Positions 37,483-43,956 of a stretch of 64,000 bases of DNA are shown here, one piece after another; within the stretch, counting starts at the first letter, position 1, and each line of letters begins with the position of its first letter. A program made the translations under genes and the position numbers. The notes under the pieces were generated by a model that was not told where the DNA came from, made no database searches, and worked only from the letters and a program-made list of their open reading frames with translations. Origin of the DNA: Paraspadella gotoi (taxonomy: Eukaryota > Animalia > Chaetognatha); NCBI GenBank assembly GCA_051294375.1, contig CM119263.1, positions 2,070,113 through 2,134,112 of the forward strand. Direction: 5' to 3'.

Positions 37483-40400
37483 ATGAAGGTGTTTTTCGTT
37501 CTACGTCTTCTCTTGACCGCCGTCACTCTTTTCCGCGCGGGCGATGCCAAAGGATTCGCCCTCTACCGGAAAGACAAAAGCCTCATTCGCCTTCATCTCA
37601 ACGACGTTAAACAAAAGCACAACTGTTCTCGTAAATTAGTGAGTACATGAATATTTGCCCACTTCTTGTCTTTTCGCTGAAATATCGACGAAATGTAATG
37701 GGATAATGATGATGCGTCCTTCTGATTTATTTGTTATTTTTTTTTTAAACTAATTATAATTATTTTAGTACTTTATTGATAGGGAGGTTAGGTACTCTGG
37801 GCTTGAATAAACGACAATGTGATAGATTCTTGATTGAAAGCTTTCAGTATCCTGCTATGTTATTATTATCTTGTAAAAGGGATGGAGGCTTTAAACTACC
37901 AAAACCTGTTAAATTCAGGGACAAGATAGCTTATTTACTAAATGACTGATAATTAATAGAATATGATTAATATTCTAATATAAAATATTAAGTATTCTTC
38001 TTAATTAAATAATTGTAAACATACTTTATGATATTTATTATATTAATTTATTTTATAAATTTACAAATTTATTTTAAATCATAGACAGACCGACTAAGTT
38101 TCTTACAAGAACGCGTCGACGCATCAAAAAAACCCTCCCGTCGGGTTGACGCAACCTTTACGATCGAAGACGATATTTTTTATCGCCGACGGTTTTTATT
38201 GATGTTTTGTTGGGCGTAAATCACGCGTGACTTTGGCGGCAAAACAGATTTTCGGTGAGATGGAGATTTTTAACGCACAACCTTAGATCACTTCACATTT
38301 TAAGGAATTAGATTTGTTGATATAATTTTAGTTTTAACTTCCCCTCGGATTCTAATTAGACCGGAGTCTGTCAAGCTCACTGAGTTTTATAAAATTTACA
38401 TAAATTTTACGGGAAAGGTTTGCTATTAGTTGTCATGAAAATATAAAAAAAATAGCTTAATATGTCAATTCGGATTTTAAATTGATAGTTTCCCTCAACC
38501 GCGCCTCAACTTATTAAGAGATTGTCAAAAGGGAATTTAATACATAAAAAAGCATCTAAGTTTGATTCTAAGTGGAAAGGAAAGGAAGGAAAAAGAAAAA
38601 AGGTCAGGAAAAGAAAAGAAAAAAAAAGAAAAGTAAAGAAAAGAAAAGAAAAGAAAAGAAAAGAAAAGAAAAGAAAAGAAAAGAAAAGAAAAGAAAAGAA
38701 AAGAAAAGAAAAGAAAAGAAAAGAGAAAAGAAAAGAAAAGAAAAGAAAAGAAAAGAAAAGAAAAAGAAAATTCTTTTTTGCATTTTTTAGGACGCTTTGT
38801 TTAATAAAATTGTTTAATTGATTAATGAAATAATTTAAATACGACAGTCGACGACGTCTTGGGCGACAAAGTTGGAGAATGTGGCGGGAATCGAAACGCA
38901 ATGCGCGATGGTGGAGATGGAGAATTGGAGGTGGGGAATGCTCAACCGACTCAGACCTCACCTGGCAAAGTAAGTTAGGGCCGGATCGTTATAGGAGTAG
39001 GTAAGATTTGAACAGGAAAGAAAAATAAAATGAAAAAAAGAAAAGTAAAGAAAAGAGAAGAAAAGAGAAGAAAAGAAAACCAAGCTAAACTCCCGCTCTT
39101 TCTCTCAACCACCAATCGACTATCCCTTCCCGCCACCCCAAAGATCCCACCCTACCTAACTTACCCTCCCCCCCTCCACCCAATCTCAAAAGGTTCCCCA
39201 CCTCTTCCCTCTCGGGCCTCTTCGGATCCACCCGCCGACTGAAGGGTCGACCCTACGAGAATCAGATCAAAGAGTTCAAGTCGATCGTCGACGGCTGGAC
39301 GAGCGGAGGCTTCGACTCGAGATCGACCCAGTTGGTGAGGCTTTTTTGGGATTAACTTACCTTTTTTGGGATCACGGTCGTGAAATGGGTGACGTCTGGA
39401 ATTAATTATTTAATATGTATTATTTGAACGAAACCTTAATCTTTTTAATTGCGGCATGCCTTTTTAATTGCGGCATGCCTTTTTAATTGCGGCATGCCTT
39501 TTTAATTGCGGCATGCCTTTTTAATTGCGGCATGCCTTTTTAATTGCGGCATGCCTTTTTAATTACGGCATGCCTTTTTAATTGCGGCATGCCTTTTTAA
39601 ATAAGCAATTACGAGAAAATTATCATTAACAAGTCCGCTAGTACAATTTTTTTCGCGTTTTTACCATTTTTCTTACGAATTGTAAGATTTTTCCCCCAAG
39701 TGACGCTGTACGCTATAACTTTTTTCCTCTCCCTACTTTTCGACAGATTTGTCAGGCGAAATACTTCGGGTGTTCAGTCCTCCCGAACTGCGGTCCCCGT
39801 CGGCGTCGCGAGACGGTGCTCGTCTGCGTCTTCGAGACGGGCCTCGCGCCCAAGACGCTTCACAAACGTGAGATTCTCAAATTCACCATTCAATACTTTG
39901 TGAATTTTTTTTAATATTACAGAAATTCTTGGATATAAATATCAATTTTTTTTTTTTCAAATTTGATCAGTGATGAAGACGACGTTGTCTACAAGAACCA
40001 CAACAACGACGACGCCAACAACGACGACCACATCGACGACGACCACATCAACGACTTCGAAACCAGAACCTCGAATAAACATCCTCGACAATTTCGTGGA
40101 GGAACCCGGCAGCTTCAAGCGGCTCGAACCACACTCGAGCGGCTCGACTTTCGCTGNNNNNNNNNNNNNNGACGACAATCTGCAGAATTCTGGGTCACGG
40201 TTGACCAACGAAACTTCTTTAGCCTCAACCAATAAAACAAAGGATTCGACAATAAAGATTGAAACAACATTTGTTTCTGCTGAGGAAACAAAGTCAACTC
40301 GAGAAACCAGTTATCACTCAGCAACATTCGAGACTGAAATGGATTTGATAGAAACAAAGACCGGAAGAAACGATTCAACGAAGTCAATGTCGTCGTCAAC

Positions 40401-43400: not shown

Positions 43401-43956
43401 GAATAATTCTTAAATACACTAAAATATATGTACGGTTTCTAAAAAAAAACTCAAAATATAGAGTGAACAAATGAACAGTCGTCTTCCCGTTTTATTCGCT
43501 TTTCAGGCCCGAGAAATTCGTCTGGCACGGGGCCACGCCCACTGGTGTACGTCTCACGTCGCTCTCATGCAAAGAAAGGGGAAAGGAGGCCTGGGCCAAC
43601 GGGGAGCAAACGGTAAAGGTGCTTGGTCGGACGGTTAAATGGTAAATCTTAAAGCTTGGAGAGTTTTGCTAAATTATTACCTTGTAAGGAGGATATTGTC
43701 CAAAAAAGCTTGTTTATTGAATGAATTAACATTTATAATTGTTGTACTATTTCGCATGAGGGACGGTGGACCGGACAAGCGCACTGATAGACAGATGGAC
43801 AAAACAGACTGTATTTTTTCTTTGACACAGAGAATCGGCAACGCGGCTAACCTCTTTACTGAAGATCCGGGTCTGCTCCAGTCGACCGTCAAATCCTGCA
43901 ACAGTAGACTCATCGTCCTCTGCGTCACCATCTCTTACCGACAGGAATTCATCTGA
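37483..43956 (+). CDS. Secreted protein: signal peptide + degenerate CAP/SCP-like domain + long disordered region + collagen XV/XVIII endostatin domain, no collagen helix (~1028 aa, 9 exons)
   Basis: Exons 37483-37638, 38848-38969, 39193-39334, 39747-39867, 39971-41859 (or 41868 with a GC donor), 42207-42376, 42847-43101, 43507-43612 and 43831-43956; all phases are consistent. The last four exons encode an unmistakable endostatin domain ([55 protein letters not shown]...IVLCV). Linkage of the 5' exons is inferred from phase. There is a 14-nt N gap in exon 5. Confidence 0.75.
37797..37944 (-). repeat. Dispersed repeat family C copy 3 (intronic, inverted)
   Basis: acaagatagcttatttactaaatg is a near-exact reverse complement of the family start. 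Confidence 0.65.
39441..39600. repeat. 19-bp intronic minisatellite (ctttttaattgcggcatgc) x8
   Basis: Near-perfect tandem copies. Confidence 0.95.

Follow-up and report, generated by a model that had tools for sequence, protein, structure and literature searches.

The window analyzed here, a stretch of 64,000 nucleotides from the chaetognath Paraspadella gotoi (contig CM119263.1, positions 2,070,113 to 2,134,112), carries on its + strand, between 37483 and 43956, an intron-rich animal gene whose last 4 exons encode an intact four-cysteine endostatin domain. The evidence supports an endostatin product that, in the readable sequence, is free of both collagen and the trimerization domain. The endostatin exons likely have their own start—i.e. 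a mini-exon with a predicted signal peptide—and quite probably give a short product of ~230 residues from the mini-exon and exons 6–9. The same 4 exons also join in phase to 5 upstream exons that encode a CAP-like domain and a long low-complexity stalk, and we put about even weight behind one locus with 2 starts that would make a short secreted endostatin and a long CAP–stalk–endostatin protein. The directly secreted endostatin is a better-supported novelty than the CAP fusion.

Trimeric NC1 and cleaved monomeric endostatin are reported to have opposite effects on cell migration, with endostatin acting at synapses (PMC13142758). Free endostatin in model animals requires collagen proteolysis. 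If true, a gene that directly encodes the monomer would represent a natural experiment that splits endostatin signaling from collagen scaffolding. The long form, if true, would be a new matrix architecture, with a CAP domain joined to a multiplexin tail.

Exon structure and the endostatin domain

The nine exons proposed in an earlier reading made from the sequence alone (the sequence-only reading) join in phase, and their 1,029 codons are uninterrupted by a stop. The features of the locus, with coordinates in the window, are as follows.

37483..37638, + strand: exon 1, predicted signal peptide (about residues 1–22) and start of the CAP-like domain; intact HNxxR motif at 37618–37632
38848..38969, + strand: exon 2, helix of the CAP-like pattern W-x(3)-L-x(3)-A, plus the conserved Cys71; the first His of the tetrad and the Glu of GEN are lost
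39193..39334, + strand: exon 3, central helix of the CAP-like domain, with the TQ motif; the second His of the tetrad is lost
39747..39867, + strand: exon 4, hairpin at the C-terminal end of the CAP-like domain (GC...VLVC); a contig of sequencing run X1 has it spliced to exon 5
39971..41868, + strand: exon 5, low-complexity stalk of 632 codons, with a GC donor at its end
40157..40170, no strand: assembly gap of 14 N within exon 5, concealing at least about 100 bases according to the contigs
41458..41481, + strand: acidic Ser-Gly site DEGSGEEE, predicted glycosaminoglycan attachment site
41872..41922, no strand: (AG)25 microsatellite immediately after the exon 5 donor
41943..41966, + strand: candidate terminal exon of 7 codons that, in a rival model, would close the upstream part; its phase fits the exon 5 donor
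42034..42075, + strand: alternative first exon (mini-exon) of 14 codons, with a good-context ATG, a hydrophobic core free of charge, and a GT donor in phase 0 with exon 6
42213..42376, + strand: exon 6, Pro/Arg-rich hinge and start of endostatin
42847..43101, + strand: exon 7, endostatin core, with a loop RGD at 42944–42952
43507..43612, + strand: exon 8, endostatin
43831..43956, + strand: exon 9, last part of endostatin, with the stop codon

GT-AG borders hold for every intron but the fifth, which needs the GC donor AAG|GCAAG at 41869 or, also in phase but weaker, the GT donor at 41860. Among the 8 acceptors of the nine-exon model, 7 end in CAG and 1 in AAG, and 2 AATAAA poly(A) signals lie 3' of exon 9 (44152 and 44173). 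The nine-exon product consists of a hydrophobic N-terminus, a 159-residue domain with 6 cysteines, 632 low-complexity residues, and the C-terminal endostatin domain. Its only hydrophobic 19-residue windows are N-terminal, which agrees with the signal peptide described in the sequence-only reading and predicted here by hydropathy. Tandem repeats occur in intron 3 (39441–39600; a 19-base minisatellite with 8.4 copies and 98% match) and at 43924–44063 (a 34-base repeat with 4.1 copies and 89% match). The latter begins within the last codons of the final endostatin exon, so the stop-codon region is duplicated in the 3' untranslated region.

Exons 6–9 each match the endostatin family PF06482 of Pfam, and the matches are collinear (profile positions 1–22, 24–102, 106–132, and 138–169). 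Joined, they score 189 bits over the full length of a profile built from 106 relatives, and exon 7 matches the endostatins of the PDB (1bnl, 1koe, 1dy0, and 1dy2) with E-values of 5e-12 to 1e-10. The 4 endostatin cysteines are all kept (Cys869, Cys974, Cys1011, and Cys1019), so the complete domain first recognized from its sequence is confirmed.

The zinc ligands of collagen XVIII endostatin, which we take to be His1, His3, His11, and Asp76, are not kept, with Arg at the His11 position and Gly at the Asp76 position. Their loss is frequent among relatives (40/106 and 80/106 for the 2 positions, respectively). As the zinc site is reported to be absent from collagen XV also (PMC7852327), it does not define the domain. 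The endostatin core is unusually acidic, with a net charge of −4 that is the second most acidic of 107 (median +4). Counted by alignment column, its RGD loop is shared with only 1 of 106 complete relatives and with the closest fragment, P0001.

Comparisons with relatives draw on 146 endostatin matches and 124 CAP proteins among the matches listed. P0001, a 659-base contig, is the closest endostatin relative in this set (58% identity) and appears to have the same exon 7 borders on both sides, the same two-residue insert, and RGD, which suggests a related lineage. The W|P intron position coincides with the point at which the fragment matches P0001, P0002, and P0076 leave the domain. In an endostatin tree of 107 rows made with a quick method, the window domain has a long branch (1.24) and its position lacks support. 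Searching by word index with exon 7 finds no match among 59 candidates, and a metagenome scan returns 4 weak partial loci (E ~1e-4).

No Gly-X-Y run of 3 or more triplets is present in the nine-exon model. A six-frame scan of the whole window finds 11 G-rich runs of at least 4 triplets, none of them collagen-like and none in the model exons. The NC1 trimerization domain (PF20010) has no Pfam match, and a local profile that detects it in 74 of the 146 relatives finds none in the model. Two short stretches of exon 5 that resemble strands of the trimer domain by eye have no profile match and were rejected. TSPN/LamG likewise has no Pfam match on exons 1–5, each scanned singly, a search of low power for small exons. 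For comparison, among the listed relatives with a complete endostatin and at least 150 upstream residues, Gly-X-Y is present in 52/56 and the trimer domain in 53/56, and the 3 that lack both (P0012, P0041, and P0116) look like a frame-shifted model, a fragment, and a mis-join.

This absence is bounded by the gap in exon 5. The exon is partly represented in one sequencing run, X1 (share 0.42; probably RNA, although its nature is a guess), and in no run recorded as RNA. The X1 contigs were aligned to 39610–40895 only. Two X1 contigs each extend 102 letters into the 14-N gap and neither reaches the far side, hence at least about 100 bases are hidden and the gap is larger than drawn. The claim of the sequence-only reading that Gly-X-Y is absent everywhere thus holds for the readable model and the six-frame window, but is not shown for the hidden stretch.

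Could the locus then be a strongly diverged multiplexin, with a short residual collagen stretch inside the gap? The gap does interrupt the contigs, and some multiplexins retain just 36–60 residues of Gly-X-Y, and one has a long Thr/Glu/Lys-rich N-terminal part (P0136, P0099, and P0106). We consider this highly improbable, given that no trimerization domain is detected, that both flanks of the gap are mucin-like, and that ~650 residues separate it from endostatin. The X1 contigs, which have low depth in the region, also show 4 substitutions and one in-frame 3-base insertion (39797, 40126, 40239, 40251, and 40509), which may be alleles or errors.

The mini-exon and the exon 5–exon 6 junction

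Intron 5 contains a mini-exon (42034–42075). It opens with an ATG in a favorable context, its 14 codons encode a hydrophobic core free of charged residues, and the GT donor at 42076 is in phase 0, compatible with exon 6. Both strands of the window (128 kb) hold 90 phase-0 mini-exons that run from an ATG to a donor; this one takes first place, and it is the only one of the 90 that is hydrophobic, uncharged, and in a good start context. Dinucleotide shuffles of intron 5 produce an equal mini-exon in 0 of 3,000 cases (3/3,000 with a lower threshold and 16/3,000 with a loose one), and none of the 7 other introns holds a comparable one. The mini-exon is non-random, and it is for this reason that the endostatin exons likely have their own start. 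We also considered it as an internal transmembrane exon, a role we rejected because it would presumably place the disulfide-bonded endostatin in the cytosol.

In the short form, a signal peptide would be followed by a basic Pro/Arg hinge and then by endostatin. This form would release endostatin as a monomer and bypass the proteolysis that frees it from collagen XVIII, possibly serving as a diffusible matrix or guidance signal.

Upstream of the mini-exon, the GT..AG intron between 39867 and 39971 is spliced out in an X1 contig that has 103 letters on one side of the joint and 96 on the other. Exon 4, which is CAP-like, therefore belongs with exon 5, which encodes the stalk. The 632 codons of exon 5 follow the order first described for this region (Thr/Ser-rich, then acidic, then basic). 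The first part of the stalk has 29% Ser and 21% Thr; a part with 28% Glu comes next, and after it pentapeptide repeats lead to a basic end. The repeats correspond to a 45-base unit (41115–41293; 4 copies, 95% match) that encodes pentapeptides of the D-N/D-R/G-L-P type. An acidic Ser-Gly site, DEGSGEEE, is present at residue 680 and fits what we take to be the consensus for glycosaminoglycan attachment.

The CAP–endostatin fusion rests on the predicted splice between exons 5 and 6. The second half of exon 5 has no stop in 363 codons vs 18 and 17 in the other frames, and its donor fits MAG|GCRAG, a pattern with 4 occurrences in 128 kb (both strands), in phase with exon 6. None of the 49 dinucleotide runs lies in the coding exons checked, which makes a read-through of exon 5 into (AG)25 unlikely. 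Overall, we lean toward a fused CAP–endostatin product being made. The long form would then be a monomeric, heavily O-glycosylated tether, possibly with one glycosaminoglycan chain, whose CAP-like head might bind a lipid or protein partner without metal. Its endostatin end may attach to partners in the basement membrane or at the cell surface. Given the acidic core of the domain, docking through 2 surface aromatics, and perhaps the RGD loop, would be more likely than through heparin. With no trimer domain, the product should act like monomeric endostatin.

The fact that the endostatin exons own a signal-peptide exon makes separate genes a live rival, although on the whole a somewhat unlikely one. 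The 2 genes would be tightly packed, the first encoding a CAP-like secreted protein with a long disordered tail (exons 1–5, ending at 41943–41966 or by read-through to 41928) and the second a stand-alone endostatin (42034–43956). The CAP–endostatin protein would then be a mis-join, while the collagen-free endostatin gene stays; the CAP fusion would no longer be the headline, and a stand-alone endostatin would still be of interest. An in-phase acceptor at 41943 is followed by 7 codons and a stop at 41966, and since this would end the upstream part, the GC donor is also compatible with 2 genes. In addition, LON-1 is a known example of a CAP domain followed by an unstructured C-terminal tail (10.1101/2024.10.01.616164), and gene ends nearly touch elsewhere in the window, where the stop of a MORN gene lies at 44323 on the opposite strand. 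Against 2 genes, only 67–105 bases separate the possible upstream stops (41928 and 41966) from the next ATG at 42034, with no AATAAA or ATTAAA between them, and the candidate acceptor at 41943 ends in TAG, unlike the CAG or AAG of all model acceptors.

At the other extreme, the nine-exon protein could be the sole product, with the mini-exon a chance occurrence or a relic. All 9 exons are in phase and a single pair of poly(A) signals follows exon 9, yet we regard this as improbable given the shuffles and the rank of the mini-exon. As such, the nine-exon model of the sequence-only reading is borne out in its exons and phase, but not as the only reading, as intron 5 also holds a signal-peptide exon and a possible terminal exon.

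For the single locus with 2 starts, several points weigh on the negative side, in addition to the fit of the GC donor to 2 genes and the bases hidden in the gap. The X1 coverage examined (39610–40895) stops short of both the exon 5–6 junction and the mini-exon. The signal peptides at both N-termini were assessed by hydropathy. Finally, no relative with either architecture is found among the matches listed, so conservation lends no support.

As to origin, the 3' exons of a multiplexin (collagen XV/XVIII) may have been retained without the collagen and trimer exons, adjoining the exons of a CAP–mucin gene. Tentatively, and with less than an even chance that all parts hold, endostatin may here have come to be encoded directly as a secreted monomer, with a signal peptide and a promoter of its own. 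The same exons would also serve a CAP-headed tether with a mucin/proteoglycan stalk and an RGD-bearing tip, all without collagen, in what is possibly the sole multiplexin-derived gene.

The CAP-like N-terminal domain

The domain encoded by exons 1–4 has 159 residues and 6 cysteines, in line with the ~150-residue Cys-containing domain noted earlier, and is probably a degenerate CAP domain. We made 2 CAP profiles from fetched proteins, the first with 129 domains and the second with 24 eukaryote-leaning domains. Full-length alignment of the N-terminal domain to these profiles gives z-scores of 4.1 and 4.7, with none of 300 shuffles and none of 212 natural windows as high. Pairwise global alignment to 4 CAP domains yields z-scores of 4.0, 2.3, 2.2, and 0.5. 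In ESM Atlas, with no CAP input, exon 4 leads to CAP clusters with a score of 0.89, a lead only, and 10/10 best family matches agree. Single-exon fold predictions are of low confidence (predicted local distance difference test, pLDDT, of 62 and 64 for exons 4 and 3) and give a hairpin for exon 4 and a helix for exon 3, as CAP expects.

Motif definitions for CAP domains are available, with CAP3 defined as HNxxR and CAP4 as G(E/Q)N(I/L/V) (PMC4118828). When the domain is aligned with CAP domains, residues 46–50 (HNCSR) fall on HNxxR and retain its His, and the landmarks HNxxR, Trp helix, TQ, GC, and VC follow in order with CAP-like spacing. By contrast, the CAP4 motif and the His/Glu cavity tetrad are lost, and the alignment register is ambiguous in exon 3. 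These results amend the landmarks of the sequence-only reading. Its Trp helix, TQ, GC, and VC are in order, but HNxxR is not the LNDVK it had proposed, and its YENQ occupies the W-x-x-E position rather than that of GEN, which is RPHLA. Similarly, the conserved histidines it reported as missing are indeed lost from the cavity tetrad, but the His of HNxxR is kept.

In other tests, the support for CAP is modest. Local hidden Markov model (HMM) scores of the joined domain are 5.3 and 2.1 bits on the first and second profiles, respectively. Shuffles equal them in 4 and 23 of 2,000 cases, and windows of non-CAP proteins in 0 and 13 of 1,059. An hhalign comparison with CAP has a probability of 0.65%, equaled by 9/150 shuffles. 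Pfam, PF00188 included, has no match to exons 1–4 scanned singly, and in ESM Atlas the score of exon 4 is below 0.9 and exon 3 has no usable match. A phmmer search of PDB with exons 2, 3, and 4 finds nothing at E 10, and fold searches with the 40-residue exon 4 model (Foldseek and VIA-align) find no structural match, an uninformative result.

The lack of a significant match by Pfam, phmmer, and hhalign, together with the absence of the tetrad and GEN motif, would fit an unrelated Cys-containing domain whose motif matches arose by chance. We consider this unlikely, given that 2 different methods indicate CAP (i.e. full-length profile alignment and language-model features of exon 4) and that the landmarks occur in order at CAP-like spacing. 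It would leave the rest of the preferred explanation, one locus with 2 starts, unaffected. The proposed CAP-like nature of the domain is thus supported by the full-length profile, with moderate statistics, and by the exon 4 lead, and is not matched by hhalign or Pfam.

Known systems and neighboring genes

The closest known systems are the multiplexins (collagens XV/XVIII, Drosophila Mp, and C. elegans CLE-1), which combine PF06482, PF20010, and PF01391. The window product resembles them in having a C-terminal four-cysteine endostatin behind a Pro-rich hinge, in its predicted secretion, and in its acidic Ser-Gly site. The window locus also probably has several promoters, as does cle-1 (PMC13142758). 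It differs by having no readable Gly-X-Y, trimerization domain, or TSPN/LamG match, with a CAP-like head instead, and by its acidic, RGD-bearing endostatin core. Functionally it corresponds to a multiplexin's endostatin end, yet, lacking helix, trimer domain, and TSPN, it falls outside this family. In the account of cle-1 cited here, isoforms arise from separate promoters, a precedent for 2 starts, and all CLE-1 isoforms retain the collagen region (PMC13142758). A collagen-free, endostatin-bearing product of a multiplexin locus is already known, as an Mp isoform without the central collagen domain has been reported in Drosophila (PMC7852327). The Mp gene has collagen exons, however, whereas the window locus shows none in 42 kb upstream.

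A second comparison is with CAP proteins. CLEC18 combines CAP, EGF, and C-type lectin domains, and endostatin has a C-type-lectin fold, so that both arrangements place a CAP domain ahead of a domain with this fold. CLEC18 differs in its true C-type lectin domain and EGF repeats, and has neither endostatin nor a mucin-like stalk. Degenerate CAP (SCP/TAPS) proteins, SmVAL4 and tablysin-15 among them, are likewise secreted CAP domains without metal-binding histidines, and SmVAL4, without 3 of the 4 tetrad residues, is reported to keep its fold and bind sterol (PMC4118828). LON-1 is described as a secreted CAP protein with an unstructured tail (10.1101/2024.10.01.616164). Compared with the degenerate CAP proteins, the window domain is far more diverged (below the Pfam threshold), keeps HNxxR and loses G(E/Q)N, and leads into a stalk of >630 residues and possibly into endostatin.

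No protein with both domains emerges from the searches, whose capped samples do not establish absence. Pfam finds CAP in 0 of 27 endostatin relatives scanned, no window of the 146 listed endostatin matches reaches even the weak score of the N-terminal domain on the first CAP profile, and PF06482 is found in 0 of the 124 listed CAP proteins. A CAP profile seeded with the window exons retrieves 4 long proteins from 3,953 candidates, none with endostatin, and none of the 146 listed endostatin matches has a credible signal peptide followed by endostatin alone. Titles and abstract openings of the papers listed in literature searches mention no CAP–endostatin protein and no stand-alone animal endostatin gene, although the supplementary domain tables of matrisome studies could hold one. 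The sequence-only reading had placed the architecture outside described families; this agrees with the listed endostatin and CAP matches, but a collagen-free product as such is not new given the Drosophila isoform.

Several genes surround the locus. A three-exon gene on the − strand (31212–33846) encodes a product that has a hydrophobic start, long repeats rich in Thr and Ala, a thyroglobulin type-1 repeat (E 1e-11), a further domain, and a transmembrane-like segment, i.e. another mucin-stalk surface protein. Between this gene and exon 1, a 95-codon open frame with ERLG-type repeats is present on the + strand (34369–34653). Downstream, a MORN-repeat gene on the − strand (44323–45983) is convergent with the endostatin locus, with 3' ends nearly gapless; its first donor looks weak and its exon borders are partly resolved. 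Lastly, a gene of the myelin proteolipid (PLP/M6) family has an exon at 58088–58450 (PF01275, E 1e-4).

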